This document shows, one piece after another, positions 6,178 through 54,683 of a stretch of DNA of 64,000 nucleotides. A program made the position numbers and the translations under genes. The notes under the pieces are model-generated. The model did not search any database and was not told where the DNA came from. It worked only from the letters and a program-made list of their open reading frames with translations. The stretch lies in the sequence record PZ445523.1; one strand, given 5' to 3'. The number at the start of each line of letters is the position of its first letter. The stretch's first letter is position 1. The DNA is from a phage.

Positions 6178-6207
6178 ATTATACCACATCCTTGTGGTAA
6201 AGTAAAC
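6178..6207 (-). promoter_or_regulatory. T4-type early promoter (GTTTAC, 18 nt, TATAAT)
   Basis: attata-N18-gtaaac on plus strand; upstream of rIIA.1/rIIA. Confidence 0.65.
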
Positions 6208-8024
6208 TATTGGCTCATCCATTCTTTACGAAGGTCAGCATTATCTCCCATGAGCATTTCAAAAAGCTCTTTCCAGTTCTCAGGAAGTTTAACAACATCA
6301 TATACTGGGTTTTGAATCATCTCACGATATTCAGATTTTTCCAAAGAGCCAAGTCCCTTAATATAACGGATGCTATGTTTAGGTAGAGCATCTTTAGCAC
6401 TCTCATATTCAGCGACTGTATAAAACCATTCTTGTTTTTTACCGACCTGAGCGATGATTACAGGAGTTTTGACAAAGCGAATTCGTCCTTGCTCAAACAA
6501 TTCTGGCCAATTACTAAAAAATCCAAGCAGAGAAGGATAAATGCTTCCTAGACCATCATGGTCAGCATCAGTCATAATAGCGATATTATGATAATTCAAG
6601 TTTTCAGCTTTTTCACCGAGAACTAATCCAGTGATTGCGCAAATATCAAATAGTTCTTTGTTTTTAAGCATATCTGCATAAGACATACCCCAACTGTTGA
6701 GAACTTTACCACGCAATGGATAACCACCGTGAAGTTCTTTATCACGAACATCAATAAGATATCCGATAGCAGAATCACCCTCAGTCAAGAAAAGAGTAGT
6801 GTCAGCATCTTTACCACAAAGATTCGCTTTGATATGTTTATGAACCTTAGCTTTAGAAGCCTTTTTAGCTGCTTTAGTTTCTGCTGCTTTTTCTGCCGCC
6901 AATTTACGAGCCAAAGCAGCTTCAATAATCGGCATTAGAATTGCTTCATTATTCAAAATAGCGCGTGAAATCTTTTTAGCATCAAGCTGAATATGACTAC
7001 GGATTTCACCAAATGGAGAAGTCAAACGCTCTTTAGTTTGAGAATCAAATCGCATGTTTTTCATATCACGAACAAACATAACGATAGTCAAACATTCTTT
7101 AACGCGTGCTTTAGTTACATCAATTTTGAACTTACGTTTGATTTGTGGAATAAGGTCTTCACAAATATCATCCATAACGCAGTCAATGTGATGGCCACCA
7201 TTCTTAGTATGAATGTTATTCACATAAGTTAATTGGCGAAATCCATCCGGTGAACGACCAACCGCAATAGAACAATTTTCTTGTTCTTGAACGATAGCAT
7301 GCTCATCATATTGGCGTGCATATTTCTTAAAATTGCCCTGAACCTTTTTACCATTAAAGGTAAATTGAATATCAGGATAAACTACTGCAAGTGTCTGGAG
7401 ACGATCTAGTGTAATGTCAAGATAAACTTGTGACAGCTCATTAGTTTCAAATGACATAAAATCAGGAATGAAAGTAACACGAGTTCCTTTCCATTTTCCA
7501 GGAATATCTTCCCATGATTTATTTTCCATGCCATTTGAACAACGAACTACAATATTATTTTGACCGTCGCCAGTTTCACCAACAAACATCACAGAAAAAA
7601 TGTTTGTCAAACTAGAACCAACACCATTCATACCGCCAGTGACGCGCTCTTTGTCATCACCAAAGTTACCACCTGCTTTTGGAATAGTCCACGCAGCAAC
7701 AGGACCAGGAATTTCTTCACCGGTAGGTGTCTTAACCATCGCTTGTGGAATACCACGACCGTTATCTTCAACTGTTACTTGATTGTTTTTAATAGTAACA
7801 TTAATTTTATTTGCGAATTTAAACTTAGTACGAATACCTTCATCTACTGAGTTATCGATAATTTCATCAATAAGCTTAACAAGACCAGGTACATACTGAA
7901 CACTTTCCCATTTACCAAACAGAAAGCGCTCATGCATTTCATTAGCTGAAGAGCCAATGTACATGCCGCTACGCTTTTTGATATGTTCAATATCGCTCAG
8001 AATTTTAATTTCATTCTTAATCAT
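6207..8024 (-). CDS. 39: DNA topoisomerase II large subunit, fused gene 39 + gene 60 homolog (605 aa)
   Basis: Continuous ORF (ORF-track start is GTG at 8027; ATG at 8024); N-terminus matches T4 gp39; no interruption, bypass element or inserted mob gene visible. Confidence 0.85.
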   Translation of the reverse strand: MIKNEIKILSDIEHIKKRSGMYIGSSANEMHERFLFGKWESVQYVPGLVKLIDEIIDNSVDEGIRTKFKFANKINVTIKNNQVTVEDNGRGIPQAMVKTPTGEEIPGPVAAWTIPKAGGNFGDDKERVTGGMNGVGSSLTNIFSVMFVGETGDGQNNIVVRCSNGMENKSWEDIPGKWKGTRVTFIPDFMSFETNELSQVYLDITLDRLQTLAVVYPDIQFTFNGKKVQGNFKKYARQYDEHAIVQEQENCSIAVGRSPDGFRQLTYVNNIHTKNGGHHIDCVMDDICEDLIPQIKRKFKIDVTKARVKECLTIVMFVRDMKNMRFDSQTKERLTSPFGEIRSHIQLDAKKISRAILNNEAILMPIIEAALARKLAAEKAAETKAAKKASKAKVHKHIKANLCGKDADTTLFLTEGDSAIGYLIDVRDKELHGGYPLRGKVLNSWGMSYADMLKNKELFDICAITGLVLGEKAENLNYHNIAIMTDADHDGLGSIYPSLLGFFSNWPELFEQGRIRFVKTPVIIAQVGKKQEWFYTVAEYESAKDALPKHSIRYIKGLGSLEKSEYREMIQNPVYDVVKLPENWKELFEMLMGDNADLRKEWMSQ

Positions 8025-8076
8025 CACTTATCCTCGTTTGGTTTCGGGAATATTATACTCCGGTAATCATAAAGCT

Positions 8077-8358: not shown

Positions 8359-8730
8359 TCACTTAAATTTAATGGCTTGAAGGAGACTAATAACTCTCAA
8401 ACGACTTCTTTCATCTTTAACTGTAAAAGAAAGAGGGTCACCAGACTTCATAGTAATAGTGCATTCAAAATCAAAACCTTCGGGAACTTCTTCGAATAGG
8501 TCAAATTCTTCATCATAAATTAGAACATTACTCTGAAAACTGTGAAGAATTTTTCCGTCATTTCCAGATGCTGTACTAATCATTGTAACATTATTACCTT
8601 TCATATCTTCAACGATAAATTCGCTTGTAGATATTACATTACTAATAGAACCATTCCTATAAATAGCAGAAAATAGATATTTCTTTTCTTCACCTTCGCG
8701 AATGCGATATTTCTTACCAATTTTAAACAT
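8359..8730 (-). CDS. hypothetical protein (123 aa)
   Basis: ORF track; ATG start. Confidence 0.5.
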   Translation of the reverse strand: MFKIGKKYRIREGEEKKYLFSAIYRNGSISNVISTSEFIVEDMKGNNVTMISTASGNDGKILHSFQSNVLIYDEEFDLFEEVPEGFDFECTITMKSGDPLSFTVKDERSRLRVISLLQAIKFK

Positions 8731-16798: not shown

Positions 16799-17269
16799 CT
16801 AGCGATAAAAACCAAATTGACGATTAGCTTCAATAATCTTTCTTTCTTCTTCGGACATTCTCCAGCGTAGTCCAACGTCAAAATGAGCCCAGACCATCTT
16901 AACAAATGCATTTATATCTTTAATATCTTCAATAATGAATGTTTTACTTTTCGAAGGTTGACTCGCTAATTTAACTTTATCATCTTCAAACAGGTCAAAA
17001 AGACCGTATTCATAAGCTCTTTTATAGCCTTTAATAGTTAAAGCCTCAGAAGAAGAAAACGGTGAATCGGTATTATGCAAAATATCTTCAGTATGCTTTA
17101 TAATTAGAATAACATTTTCTGGATATTTTCTTTCTTTTATATCTTCAATTAAAAAATCCGGATTTTCTGCTAAAGGAATAATTAATGAGCATTTTTTACC
17201 AAGAGTATTTACTGATTTATCTTCTTTAGACATGAATTCTACTGAATAATGTTTTGCTACTTCAATCAT
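16799..17269 (-). CDS. hypothetical protein (156 aa)
   Basis: ORF track; ATG. Confidence 0.5.
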
Positions 17270-17412
17270 GTGATTTCCTTTTGCCTACTAATGGACCATC
17301 GGGAATTTTGTTTTCCTGGATATATTTCTCATTTTCTTCCATCATTTTACTGCCGATTTTAAGAAGCAAATCCAGTGCTTCATTTGCTTTTGCTTTAGCC
17401 TCATATCTTTGT

Positions 17413-17616
17413 TCATGATTTATCACCATAGATGTCTCTCATCAATTTAAGCGCTGAGCGTTCTAATTTCTTTTCTTTCTCAGCACTAATCATTGATTTC
17501 ATCCATTCTTCCGATTCGTTCTGCATTTCTTTATTTGCTTGTTCAACCCAACCATCATCAATATACATTGAGTTTGGTCTATTGAACCATTCAAGAATCT
17601 TCTTGAGAGCTTTCAT
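17413..17616 (-). CDS. hypothetical protein (67 aa)
   Basis: ORF track; ATG. Confidence 0.4.
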
Positions 17617-18076
17617 TTATTTTACCTAAAACAATAGTAGGAGCATCGTCAAATTTATGAATTTTTAGCAAATTTGGATTTAAATTATTCCATAAAGAGG
17701 TAATAAAATATGATAGCGCACTTTCGTCCGTAATTATAAATTTATTTCCTTTATCTATTTTCCAATCATATATTGAATCATATGAATAGAAGGATAACGG
17801 TTTATTATTATAATATGCTTCAGCAACATCAATATAGTTAGATTTAGTAAATGCTTGAATTGCCATAAATGGAGAATTTTGTACAGTTTCAATAATTCCG
17901 ATCTTTTTAAGTTTTATTTCAACATCTTCTGGAATTGGCATTGAAATAAAATCTTCTACTAGATACATGTTATTGTCATATCTTTTATCAATCATTACTG
18001 CTACGGTAATTGGAACATCCTTGACAAACGCCATACTAATACTATTGATAGACATTTCAAACAAAATTGCTTCCAT
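17591..18076 (-). CDS. mrh: Mrh-like protein (161 aa from ATG at 18076)
   Basis: Trimmed to ATG gives 161 aa, matching T4 mrh size and position upstream of soc; not verified. Confidence 0.45.
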
Positions 18077-19190: not shown

Positions 19191-19390
19191 TTTGAATGCT
19201 CTATAATTAATTTTAAGGCTTCTTCACGCACCAACTTGTCTAATGGTATATGCCCAGTTTTAATTATGTAAGCTTTGTGGAGCTGATTAGATAAGAGCTC
19301 ACATACGAGCTCCTTGTCATAATCTTTAAATAGCTGGTCAATACGTTTCTTGCGGGCTTTCTTGAGCTGGCGTTTATTTAAACGAGCCAT
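19187..19390 (-). CDS. hypothetical basic protein (67 aa)
   Basis: ORF track; ATGA overlaps. Confidence 0.45.
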   Translation of the reverse strand: MARLNKRQLKKARKKRIDQLFKDYDKELVCELLSNQLHKAYIIKTGHIPLDKLVREEALKLIIEHSK

Positions 19391-19908
19391 TAATAACCTC
19401 GGTCTTGACGAGCGAAATTTTCAGCATTTTTCAGATAATAAAGTTTAAAGATTTCTTCAGCTGACATTCCAAGAGCAATAAATTTATTCATGAAAAAGTG
19501 AAATTGGTCAATCAGTTCAAATTTAATTTCAAGCTGATCTTCGGGAGATAAATCTTGAATTTTCTTGGATTGCATTTCAGAATAACGTTTCTTCCAAGGT
19601 TTCCATACAGCAGAAGCTTCTTTTTCACCATTACTCATACCACCAAGAGAAGTATATAGCTCGCGAGTTTCGTCTGCGATATAATCGTCTTGGTTTCGCA
19701 GCCAAGCAAGAACTTCTCCTGCGGTTTCAAGTGAATCAGGATGACGATTTGTTTCTGGCTTATCATTAGCCAAACGAATCTGTAAAGACCGCTGCATATC
19801 AAGCATAACCTGCAATGGGTCTTTTTCATCACCGAGAATATCCCAGTATTCATTTTGAGCTTTATCAACACCTTCGATCAAATGAGCACATTCATTAAAG
19901 TGAGCCAT
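19390..19908 (-). CDS. 56: dCTPase/dUTPase gp56 (172 codons from ATG at 19908)
   Basis: ORF track trimmed to MAHFNECAHLIEGVDKAQNEYW..., recognised as T4 gp56; AAAGGAAAA SD. Confidence 0.8.
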   Translation of the reverse strand: MAHFNECAHLIEGVDKAQNEYWDILGDEKDPLQVMLDMQRSLQIRLANDKPETNRHPDSLETAGEVLAWLRNQDDYIADETRELYTSLGGMSNGEKEASAVWKPWKKRYSEMQSKKIQDLSPEDQLEIKFELIDQFHFFMNKFIALGMSAEEIFKLYYLKNAENFARQDRGY

Positions 19909-19942
19909 TATTTTTCCTTTCAATTCATGGGTTAGTAGATTA

Positions 19943-19966
19943 ATTATACAATAAATATATAAAGCA
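19943..19966 (-). promoter_or_regulatory. MotA-dependent middle promoter (TGCTTTA box, 11 nt, TATAAT) for gene 56
   Basis: plus strand attata...taaagca. Confidence 0.5.
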
Positions 19967-19979
19967 ATAAGGAGGACAT

Positions 19980-20180
19980 ATGGTACAAAAATTAATGGCA
20001 CTTGTTGATGCCATAAAAGGTAATAAGAAACGTATAGCTTTTACTATTTCTGCTATGGTAGGAATTTTACTCTGGAACTTTATTTTATCACCTGTTGCAA
20101 TTGCTCATGATGTTAATATTCCAGTAGTTACTCTTGATACATTCGTAGATTTAGCATTTGCTTTAGTTGGGTTAATTTAA
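19980..20180 (+). CDS. plus-strand small hydrophobic protein (66 aa)
   Basis: ATG preceded by AAGGAGG; fills the 56-61 gap exactly with only a 4-nt tail overlap with gene 61; predicted membrane helix. Confidence 0.45.
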   Translation: MVQKLMALVDAIKGNKKRIAFTISAMVGILLWNFILSPVAIAHDVNIPVVTLDTFVDLAFALVGLI

Positions 20181-21205
20181 ATCTTAGCATATTTAGATAG
20201 TCGCATTTTAGCCATCAACCCCTGGGCAATATTATTTTTCATATATTCCATAATTTGTTCAGTGGTTGCACCTTCCTTTCTAATCATATCATTAACATCT
20301 TTTGATTTCCAGGGAGATTTATCCCAAAACATAACCCTTTCTCCTGCATCAACTAATTTAGTCATTCGCTTAATAGTGTCAGGATGACGAGGTTCATTAT
20401 CTAAAACCCACACACGTCTATCTTTAAATGGAACAACTTCTAGGTCTAATTGACCACCCGTAATAGCTATACCATTTTCAATAAAAAGTGAATCTATAGG
20501 TCCTTCTAGAACATATACATCACCATCTTTAACTCGTTCGACTCCATAGATTTTTGTTGCCTCAGGATAAGCTTTGATGGTGATATATTTTTGAGGAGCA
20601 TCTTTCTTTAATGCACGTCCTTGAAACGACTCAGCTTTTCCATTAGCATTATAAATTGGAATAACAAGACGAGGCTCAGAAATTTCCTTTTTGTATGTTC
20701 CCGGTGCTATACTATTAACTAATTTAGGCCATTCGGTTGTAAACCAAAGATATTTCCATTTATCCTTTGGAATACAACGAGCTTTTACATATTTTATAAT
20801 TGGATGGTCTTCCGCCAGTTTATCTAATCTAACACATGACGGAAGAGATTTAATTATTTTCTTCTCAGGTTGTTTAGGAAGTTCTTTAGGTTTTTCTACT
20901 GGACGACTTTTACCTTTTTCTTTTCTTATTTCAAAGATATACTCACGATATAAATCAGGTTCAAACTCCTTTAAATATATTCCGATTGGTGCATGATAGT
21001 TACAGTTATAACAATGAATATTTCCTTCATTATTATCACCATAATACCATCCACGGGCTTTATTTTGGTCGGTTTTTGAATCTCCACACACTGGGCATCT
21101 AAACCGTAATTTAAAAGTTGAACTATTATTTACTTGTGTGAATTTAGGTAAATGAGCTAATGCACGGTATGCAAACTCATTATCAATCCAAGGTATTGAT
21201 GACAT
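20177..21205 (-). CDS. 61: DNA primase gp61, 342 aa
   Basis: Zinc ribbon CPVCGD...CYNC, TOPRIM-like core; recognised as T4 gp61. Confidence 0.9.
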   Translation of the reverse strand: MSSIPWIDNEFAYRALAHLPKFTQVNNSSTFKLRFRCPVCGDSKTDQNKARGWYYGDNNEGNIHCYNCNYHAPIGIYLKEFEPDLYREYIFEIRKEKGKSRPVEKPKELPKQPEKKIIKSLPSCVRLDKLAEDHPIIKYVKARCIPKDKWKYLWFTTEWPKLVNSIAPGTYKKEISEPRLVIPIYNANGKAESFQGRALKKDAPQKYITIKAYPEATKIYGVERVKDGDVYVLEGPIDSLFIENGIAITGGQLDLEVVPFKDRRVWVLDNEPRHPDTIKRMTKLVDAGERVMFWDKSPWKSKDVNDMIRKEGATTEQIMEYMKNNIAQGLMAKMRLSKYAKI

Positions 21206-21373: not shown

Positions 21374-22000
21374 TTAACCTCTATTCATAAAAGCATTAAA
21401 AATTTGGTCATCAATAGAAACATTTACTTTAGACTGTTTTTCAGATGGCAATTCATAACCACATATTACAATTTTATGATCAATATCAAAATACACAGAA
21501 GCAATATGATTAATGATATTTTCAGTGAAGTCTAAATCAACATCAATGTCTTTTTGACCAAAGCCCAAAGGATAAATAATGCGAGTAATTCGATTATCTT
21601 TAACAAAGATTCCACCGACATACTCTGTGCTGCGTTTAAAGTCTACACGCCGACGAAATGAAAAATATTCAGACTCTTTATGAGCTCGGCTTATAGGGCA
21701 CAACGAATAACTAGAATAAGAGATGTCAAATCCTACGCCTTCAATATGAACTAAATTGTCATGATTAAACCAATTATAATCATATGCCAAGTCCATTAGA
21801 TTGTCATATGTGAAAGGCACCGGATTAACATCATTGGTCACAAGCATATAATTAGCAACTGCTATAATTTCATTATTTTTAACGAATACAAACCGTGATT
21901 GATGCGAATGACCTGGACCTGTGTTTTCACGATTAATGATATAACACTGGGCACCTTTATATTTGTACGTGTCTTTACACTTGTGCATTTGATAAAGCAT
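21374..22000 (-). CDS. 61.2-like hypothetical protein (208 aa)
   Basis: ORF track; ATG. Confidence 0.55.
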   Translation of the reverse strand: MLYQMHKCKDTYKYKGAQCYIINRENTGPGHSHQSRFVFVKNNEIIAVANYMLVTNDVNPVPFTYDNLMDLAYDYNWFNHDNLVHIEGVGFDISYSSYSLCPISRAHKESEYFSFRRRVDFKRSTEYVGGIFVKDNRITRIIYPLGFGQKDIDVDLDFTENIINHIASVYFDIDHKIVICGYELPSEKQSKVNVSIDDQIFNAFMNRG

Positions 22001-53963: not shown

Positions 53964-54683
53964 TTATGATTCTTCTAAATGTCTTTTCTGAAAAGTTGAT
54001 ACCATACTACGATAAGGTTCATTTGGATACCCGTGTTTTATAGCTTCCTTTGTAAATTTTCTCCATCCGTATTTAGTTTCTTTCCAAAGCTCGAATAATT
54101 CATCTTCATACTGCCATATAGTTAAATGAGAACGCTTTGCAGCTTTAATTCCATTAATGTGCTTTTCTTTTACTGTAGGATTGCTTAGTGTCTTTTTAAT
54201 AATATTACTAACTTTTCTAACAAAAGCTGGGTCCTTATATCGTTGTGAAGTTTTTATTGAAGTGTTTAATTTAGCTTCCGGCGTGGATGTGACCTCTTTC
54301 ATCTTTTTCTTCATATGCTCTATATGATTAGGATTTTTCCATAAATTTATAGAATGCTTTTTACATTTTATCCTAGTTTCATCTGCAACCTTTCCTCCTT
54401 CACCCCCATATGACAGGTTAACGCAGTTTTTTCCATATTTCAATTTACCTGCCATGATATATAATATTTCGGCTTGTACCATTTTATCATAATTATCAAA
54501 AACTTCTAAAACCGTTTTTGATAATATATGGTCATTTGACACTTTTACACGTTCTATATAATTTCCACTACCAACATACGAATCATTGATGTTATTAGTT
54601 ATATGTCGACCATAATAGTATTTCTTAATACCTGTCTTTAAATTTAATATTTCAGTTTTATAGATAGTAAAATATTTTTTCAT
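53964..54683 (-). mobile_element. GIY-YIG-type homing endonuclease-like gene (Seg-like), 239 aa, possibly degenerate
   Basis: N-terminus FTIYKTEILNLKTGIKKYYYGRH resembles GIY...YIG...R..H; lysine-rich helical C-terminus. Confidence 0.45.

Follow-up and report, generated by a model that had tools for sequence, protein, structure and literature searches.

A conserved small gene converging on gene 61 of T4-like phages, predicted to encode a late inner-membrane protein with a tentative link to lysis

The late promoters of phage T4 follow the consensus TATAAATA at −13 to −6 (PMC1524935). Among about 50 T4 late sites, 32 are perfect and nine carry A at −13, the commonest variant, and late transcripts run in both polarities (PMC2988020). 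A small protein of phage RB69, RB69ORF029w, was listed as a novel open reading frame (ORF) in 2006, with a membrane helix predicted at residues 21–41 (Nolan et al., PMC1524935 supplement). Mu gp25, the "releasin" required to free the Mu endolysin, belongs to the DUF2730 family, and in Mu-like phages a DUF2730 gene is found within five genes of the endolysin gene (PMC9239132). The present analysis concerns a 66-codon ORF on the plus strand between genes 56 and 61 in sequence record PZ445523.1, a stretch of phage DNA of 64,000 nucleotides (the window). The explanation we consider best, and judge to be rather probable overall, is that the ORF is a phrog_2024 gene, expressed late, whose product would reside in the inner membrane as an accessory to lysis.

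A conserved gene of the phrog_2024 family

The features on which the argument rests are the following.

19980..20180, plus strand: coding sequence of a predicted small inner-membrane protein, phrog_2024 (from the ORF listing; ATG, 66 codons, TAA stop)
19969..19975, plus strand: Shine-Dalgarno site AAGGAGG, by direct reading, 4 nt ahead of the ATG

The window protein matched the hidden Markov model of phrog_2024 along its whole length (E = 3.1e-29, residues 2–66 on profile positions 1–65 of 65), a catalogued family that carries the label "unknown function". By tblastn, 699 phage records were matched, with at least 80% of the protein covered in 691 of them, and the ORF is intact in about 690 records of T4-like phages from at least seven genera. 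Members were found in Tequatro-, Mosig-, Gapriver-, Karam-, Gelderland- and Moonvirus and in T4-like phages of Klebsiella. The identity of the protein between genera is 25–50% and its length is constant at 62–70 residues. Orthologs include T4 17738..17938, RB69ORF029w (named in the annotation of Shf125875), VR7 gp033, VR26 gp031-032, S16 gp16.1, Merlin gp33, CkP1_0028 and the T6 copy; in hundreds of genomes the label is "hypothetical protein". A conserved ORF in related phages, which the initial annotation had named as a check on its candidate, was thus found.

The arrangement of the locus is conserved as well. In every genus examined, the ORF is opposite in strand to the early genes and convergent with gene 61, and AGGAGG or AAGGAG stands at the same position upstream of it. 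The 4-nt overlap of its stop codon with that of gene 61 recurs in T4, fPS-2, CkP1, Shf125875, S16, Merlin and kv_tblp5 and is made by the second copy in VR26; every locus checked had it, the annotation of ECML-359 being too sparse for the check. The neighbor upstream of the ORF varies and may be gene 56, dam, a homing endonuclease or a small MazG-like gene.

The ratio of nonsynonymous to synonymous substitution rates (dN/dS) is 0.10–0.50 within genera and about 0.3 between genera, where the synonymous rate is saturated; the sample was small, since IMG/VR yielded 9 loci. Variable sites fall at codon positions 1, 2 and 3 in the numbers 20, 6 and 21. When 23 diverse family members were aligned, P38 was invariant and W32, N33 and P48 were nearly so. 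The family motif runs from a basic patch through a hydrophobic helix, W-N-x4-P and a G-x2-(L/I)-P loop to an acidic tail. A search of 1.84 billion representative proteins gave 20 clusters at E ≤ 0.001, and by this measure phrog_2024 is a small, phage-restricted family.

The window copy departs from its relatives at one position, where Asp44 (GAT, 20109–20111) replaces the Gly (GGT) of T4, QOTSP and nearly all members. In the 23-sequence alignment it alone has an acidic residue in the loop that follows the helix; one member is basic there. The exact protein sequence of the window was absent from a collection of 15 billion proteins. Two further copies differ in another way. Gaprivervirus VR26 carries tandem paralogs (1795–1992 and 2001–2201 of its locus, L003), the first of the T4/RB69 subtype and the second of a subtype that occurs alone in Klebsiella T4-like phages, and the second copy of ECML-359 apparently has no proper start.

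Taken together, the full-length phrog_2024 match, the near-complete coverage across phage records, the constant position, the purifying selection seen in the dN/dS values and the invariant residues indicate that T4-like phages have in this plus-strand ORF a genuine protein-coding gene and not a chance frame. An accidental frame, in a 200-bp gap that would hold just the 3′ untranslated and terminator region of gene 61 and the promoter of gene 56, is scarcely credible. It would account for the fact that the T4 copy is unannotated in both reference records (AF158101.6 and NC_000866.4) and for the terminator-like hairpin and middle-promoter match found here on the minus strand. It does not account for the conservation, the selection and the family evidence, and the chance of an open frame of 66 codons at 34% G+C is, by arithmetic, about 0.007.

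The window is a segment of a Tequatrovirus genome, nearest to the record vB_Eco_QOTSP (98.2% identity), with T6 at 96.6%. Minus-strand ORFs cover 93% of it in the ORF scan. Within the 64 kb, a scan for ORFs of at least 25 codons recovered just one on the plus strand that lies mostly in a gap and has both an ATG and a Shine-Dalgarno site, namely the present ORF, which agrees with the initial annotation, where it was described as the only plus-strand gene candidate. Its flanks are as follows.

19390..19910, minus strand: gene 56 (dCTPase), ATG at 19910
20177..21205, minus strand: gene 61 (DNA primase), convergent with the ORF
20177..20180, both strands: TTAA palindrome, in which the stop codons of the ORF (20178–20180, plus) and of gene 61 (20177–20179, minus) share 4 nt

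The 66 codons and the AAGGAGG site had been recognized correctly. The start given for the feature, 19909, has to be moved to 19980, because that position belongs to the start codon of gene 56, and the 69 nt from 19911 to 19979 are thus a spacer between divergent genes and lie outside the ORF. An exact fit between genes 56 and 61 had been proposed; the placement in the gap holds and the exactness does not, given the spacer on one side and the overlapping stop codons on the other. The statement that dam occupies this interval in T4 and is missing here proved accurate: T4 dam (16846..17625) lies between gene 56 and the T4 copy of the ORF, which is situated on the plus strand inside a 309-bp gap between dam and gene 61, and a tblastn search of the window with T4 Dam found no homolog (best E = 0.78).

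Late-promoter signal, predicted topology and minus-strand signals

A candidate promoter of the late type stands ahead of the ORF.

19950..19957, plus strand: T4-type late promoter variant AATAAATA, matching 7 of 8 consensus positions with A for T at −13, 22 nt before the ATG

Transcription would start near 19963, we infer, and leave a leader of 17 nt. ATAAATA is found 16–22 nt ahead of the ATG in Tequatro-, Mosig- and Gaprivervirus despite their differing flanks. One Klebsiella phage has a perfect TATAAATA at the promoter position, and Karam-, Gelderland- and Moonvirus have TATTAAATA, so that (A/T)TAAATA is retained at this distance in every genus. Elsewhere the motif is depleted. The 64 kb hold 3 copies of ATAAATA on the plus strand and 4 on the minus strand, against about 17–23 expected per strand; these 7 copies, against about 35–45 expected on both strands, amount to a 4- to 6-fold under-representation. 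Four of the seven lie 22–30 nt before a start codon, namely those of the ORF (19951, plus), soc, gene 49 and rI.1/rI (19001, 46430 and 60420, all minus), and the late motif of gene 49 is likewise AATAAATA. A consensus scan revealed no sigma-70-like promoter upstream of the ORF on the plus strand. Because (A/T)TAAATA is conserved, is depleted elsewhere and is accompanied by no such site, the ORF is probably expressed late and in a gp55-dependent manner. RNA polymerase of the gp55 type would read it clockwise from AATAAATA at 19950–19957, and translation would begin from the strong Shine-Dalgarno site. The initial annotation had described the ORF as transcribed against the flow. This is no anomaly. 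With a late-promoter motif in place, and with T4 late transcripts running in either direction, the ORF has the appearance of a T4 late gene of the normal, clockwise kind.

Two other plus-strand motifs were noted, a perfect TATAAATA at 8658–8665 inside a minus-strand gene and ATAAATA at 21572–21578. No convincing ORF follows either of them, and they may be antisense late promoters or chance matches.

The product should be a 66-residue inner-membrane protein. The hydrophobic, membrane-type character noted in the initial annotation agrees with the hydropathy, the modeled helix and the charge pattern. Hydropathy peaks at residues 23–41 and 47–65, and AlphaFold2, run on a 20-sequence alignment, placed helices at residues 2–12, 16–42 and 52–62 (predicted local distance difference test 76, predicted template modeling score 0.50). 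Over 23 members, the N-terminal flank has a mean of 4.5 Lys or Arg, the 6-residue loop after the helix is essentially uncharged, and the C-terminal tail is acidic, with two or three Asp or Glu and no Lys or Arg. By the positive-inside rule, the basic flank and the uncharged loop would put the N terminus in the cytoplasm and the loop in the periplasm. The basic N terminus, with five Lys or Arg, would then face the cytoplasm, and one long membrane helix (about residues 16–42) would bear the conserved W32-N33...P38 face. On the periplasmic side a short uncharged loop (AH-G/D-V-x-I/L-P) would lead to an acidic, amphipathic C-terminal helix; alternatively, this helix may dip back into the membrane.

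Profile searches of the sequences in the Protein Data Bank (PDB) with the window protein gave noise only (YejA, E = 0.12). With Foldseek, family members and noise alone were found in BFVD, and nothing was found in PDB.

Two signals on the opposite strand share this region.

19943..19968, minus strand: MotA-type middle-promoter match of gene 56, with ATTGCTTTA (19968→19960), 11 nt and TATAAT (19948→19943)
19995..20014, minus strand: terminator-like hairpin on the gene 61 strand, ATGGCAT-CAACAA-GTGCCAT followed by TAATTTTTGT, from a consensus scan, with a putative terminator function

The middle-promoter match overlaps the plus-strand late promoter, and the annotation of Yersinia phage fPS-2 has a "predicted middle promoter" at the corresponding site. 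ATTGCTTTA is taken as a putative MotA box on the strength of the general consensus for such boxes. The hairpin sits within codons 6–12 of the ORF. If it ends the gene 61 transcript, the 3′ untranslated end of that messenger RNA would be antisense to the whole ORF, and on the plus strand no terminator-like site was found between the ORF and 24368, so that a late transcript could run antisense into gene 61. Two candidate features of this region were dropped. One was a minus-strand terminator conserved within the ORF, discarded since the hairpin is present in the window and T4 and is unrecognizable outside Tequatrovirus; the other was a conserved dual start at Met1 and Met6, discarded since it is confined to Tequatrovirus. 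In the window itself, the plus-strand stretch 19980–20014 encodes Met1 and Met6 with Lys4 between them, and the hairpin begins at the Met6 codon, an arrangement that resembles the dual-start motif of some holins.

These overlaps raise the question of whether RNA is the main product, in the form of a late transcript antisense to the primase gene 61, or the reverse, so that one or the other gene is silenced, with a peptide that is secondary or resembles a type I toxin. We regard this as very improbable. The convergent genes with 4-nt overlapping stops in every genus, the lack of a plus-strand terminator and the extent of the gene 61 3′ end across the entire ORF would suit such a role, and one relative matched Ldr_toxin weakly (E = 0.1). 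On the other hand, amino acid identity is kept between genera while synonymous sites are saturated, which shows selection on the peptide itself. No conservation of the minus-strand hairpin is seen beyond Tequatrovirus, Rfam returned a chance small nucleolar RNA match only (E = 0.37) and no separate small-RNA gene was seen, and relatives outside the T4-like phages keep the protein without a primase gene nearby. The toxin role considered in the initial annotation is not supported, the only toxin-family match being that single one to Ldr.

Distant relatives and a possible role in lysis

Profile searches extended the family to E. coli chromosomes and metagenomic phages, and genome contigs were searched with a hand-made degenerate DNA pattern. 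Prophage relatives of 92–97 residues match phrog_2024 at about 1e-10, and their best cultured-phage matches are the T4-like ORFs beside gene 61. They carry an extra N-terminal hydrophobic segment. In E. coli, Scandinavium and Pseudescherichia, the relative lies 5–6 ORFs (0.9–1.5 kb) from a soluble lysozyme, which in these three genomes adjoins a DUF2730-like membrane plus coiled-coil protein. The order is tail fiber, membrane plus coiled-coil protein of 81–106 residues, lysozyme (on the other strand), GIY-YIG gene, p186, p103 (undetected in Pseudescherichia) and the family member of 70–97 residues; the E. coli and Scandinavium loci are at a prophage end. NCBI PGAP names the membrane plus coiled-coil protein "DUF2730 family protein", and the match of this protein to Pfam PF10805 is just below threshold (E = 1.4e-4). 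In four metagenomic phages, a tail-tip or tail-fiber gene is followed by a membrane plus coiled-coil protein of 94–98 residues, Endonuclease VII and the family member, and the genes overlap.

This late-operon module recurs in loci L020 (5700–8300), L031 (2700–5200), L033 (470–2960) and L023, L025, L026 and L027 (5200–6800). It comprises a tail fiber, a DUF2730-like protein, lysozyme with a GIY-YIG gene or Endonuclease VII, p186-like and p103-like proteins and a phrog_2024 member, in varying order; p186 and p103 are both present in L020, L031, L023 and L025, p186 alone in L033, and neither in L026 and L027. The E. coli module region is found at no less than 80% coverage in 25 of 5426 complete genomes, beside yegD. 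A lysis cassette beside lysozyme in metagenomic locus L026 was considered and dropped, as no membrane proteins adjoin it. One metagenomic member, P0118 (L024, 129–1383), has a context unlike the others, a 352-residue RelA_SpoT-domain gene directly after it on a 2.2-kb contig.

Similarity to holins was found among these relatives. Six family members match the C-terminal part of Pfam PF11351 (GTA_holin_3TM); the ranges overlap and end at profile positions 114–117. The best match is that of a prophage relative (E = 7e-4, 20.5 bits), and the five others reach 11–15 bits and all end at 116–117. Taken with the gene orders and the phrog_2024 matches of the distant relatives, this suggests a holin-like prophage protein as the longer relative of the T4-like one, which would have kept only the last long helix and the tail. 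Like holins as a class, it is a small protein (66 residues) with at least one predicted membrane helix. A lysis-associated accessory role, exerted late at the envelope, is accordingly offered as a tentative possibility. The protein might, for example, influence when lysis occurs or be a partner of the holin-related or antiholin-like kind, and would not be the main T4 holin.

Substantial evidence weighs against this picture of a late, membrane-bound lysis accessory. All PF11351 matches fall short of the gathering threshold (24.8 bits), and the window protein gave none; nor were the three helices of that family seen, the model having one long helix and an 11-residue C-terminal helix. The charged cytoplasmic C-terminal tail of the holin class is absent, the charged segment of the ORF protein being N-terminal. 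No lysis gene stands beside the ORF in the window or in the T4-like phages examined, and only distant prophage relatives are near an endolysin. The gene of the relatives also travels with tail genes, Endonuclease VII and the p186-like protein in prophages and metagenomic phages, and their nearness to lysozyme could thus be incidental. T4 t mutants do not lyse, so the ORF product cannot be an autonomous holin for T4 lysozyme. The confidence of the AlphaFold2 model is only moderate, and the promoter of the ORF is only a variant of the consensus. The promoter search published for RB69 in 2006 called no late promoter before RB69ORF029w, and no transcript, ribosome-footprint, peptide or phenotype data for the ORF were found in the literature. 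No sequence-family match of the ORF protein with T4 T or RI was found. The UniRef name "Holin" on the OE5505 copy has no traceable basis and was set aside.

The company of tail genes could be read as a sign that the protein, made with the other late proteins, mainly helps from a membrane anchor to assemble tails or heads or to package DNA, a reading we consider improbable. Outside the T4-like phages the gene ends tail-gene operons and is consistently linked to Endonuclease VII or to the p186-like gene, whose product weakly matches the PHROG "minor tail protein", and the late promoter motif would fit. However, no homolog of p186, p103 or the membrane plus coiled-coil protein, the partners in the prophages, was detected in the window, p186 matches only one cultured phage record, no virion-proteome report of the protein was found, and a hydrophobic protein of 66 residues is unlikely as a virion component.

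The position of the E. coli homolog bears on another proposal, that of the initial annotation, in which the protein would be an exclusion factor. More broadly, it might serve in superinfection exclusion, immunity or anti-defense by blocking a membrane component of the host or of an incoming phage. In E. coli the homolog closes the prophage, with host yegD following, and accessory "moron" genes typically sit at such a place. The protein is predicted to be small and to cross the membrane once, one face of its helix is conserved, the family is split into subtypes of which two are stacked in VR26, a pattern common for specificity-type genes, and it is restricted to phages of Enterobacterales and a few metagenomic phages. 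The promoter evidence points the other way. In T4, imm and sp, which are known to act in exclusion, are early genes, and the sole promoter signal of the ORF is late, with none of the sigma-70-like sites that an early exclusion gene would need. In the four metagenomic phages, the late-operon genes ahead of it overlap the gene, whose translation seems to be coupled to theirs; in that setting it is no accessory gene with a promoter of its own. Pfam, NCBIfam and PADLOC held no match for the window protein, a negative that counts against exclusion and against the lysis role alike. An exclusion function is judged to be rather unlikely, and the functional evidence, itself weak, points towards lysis instead.

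In a bolder form of the lysis proposal, which we hold to be unlikely, the T-even phages would possess an overlooked late protein of a holin family that tunes lysis timing or lysis inhibition, or depolarizes the membrane, while its transcript helps to shut off primase. If this were so, the T4 lysis system would be tied to a family shared with enterobacterial prophages and GTA-type holins.

Other window features and comparison with known systems

Two further features of the window lie apart from the locus. At 6207–8027 on the minus strand, a single topoisomerase ORF of 606 residues is apparently a fusion of T4 genes 39 and 60; presumably, it would then have neither the split gene nor the translational bypass segment of T4. 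An ORF at 54084–54665, also on the minus strand, is weakly similar to the T4 homing endonuclease SegF (E = 1e-7, 26% identity) and is probably another seg-type GIY-YIG gene, segF itself being absent from the 56–soc interval of the window phage.

Judged by orthology, the "novel ORF" 029w of RB69 is shared with T4, and it was apparently listed as novel in 2006 because the T4 copy had never been annotated. Searches of the literature found no papers on RB69ORF029w, on phrog_2024 or on T4 ribosome profiling and unannotated ORFs, and the conserved late-promoter signal, the presence of the gene in T4, the link of prophage relatives to endolysin and DUF2730, and the sub-threshold holin similarity appear, within the reach of these searches, to be unpublished. 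T4 is a reference organism, and its standard records omit a gene that is conserved in at least seven T4-like genera; proteomic, transcriptomic and knock-down screens based on these gene lists would exclude it. Should the lysis lead hold, the T-even system of lysis and lysis inhibition would gain a member, and phrog_2024 would be tied to prophage proteins of the holin type. Should it fail, the annotation is still to be corrected by adding T4 17738..17938 on the plus strand.

The ORF can be compared with three groups of known systems. T4 Imm and Sp and type I toxins such as Ldr are small membrane or envelope proteins, as the ORF product is predicted to be, and the ORF has an antisense overlap with its neighbor. 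There is no significant similarity to any of them, however; the signal of the ORF is late and not early, and no dedicated antisense RNA gene was seen.

Holins and lysis accessories, represented by PF11351, Mu gp25 and T4 T and RI, resemble the ORF product in being small, membrane-inserted (by prediction in its case) and probably late. PF11351 proteins have three membrane helices, whereas one long helix is predicted for the T4-like ORF proteins. T4 already has a holin, T.

In its promoter signal the ORF resembles soc, gene 49 and rI.1/rI, T4 late genes situated in early regions otherwise depleted of that motif. Like the ORF, they have (T/A)ATAAATA 22–30 nt upstream, together with a Shine-Dalgarno site and an ATG, and on this comparison the ORF would be an ordinary late gene of the T4 family that belongs to a catalogued but uncharacterized protein family. 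These genes are on the same strand as the early genes around them; in contrast, the ORF lies on the other strand, convergent with gene 61.

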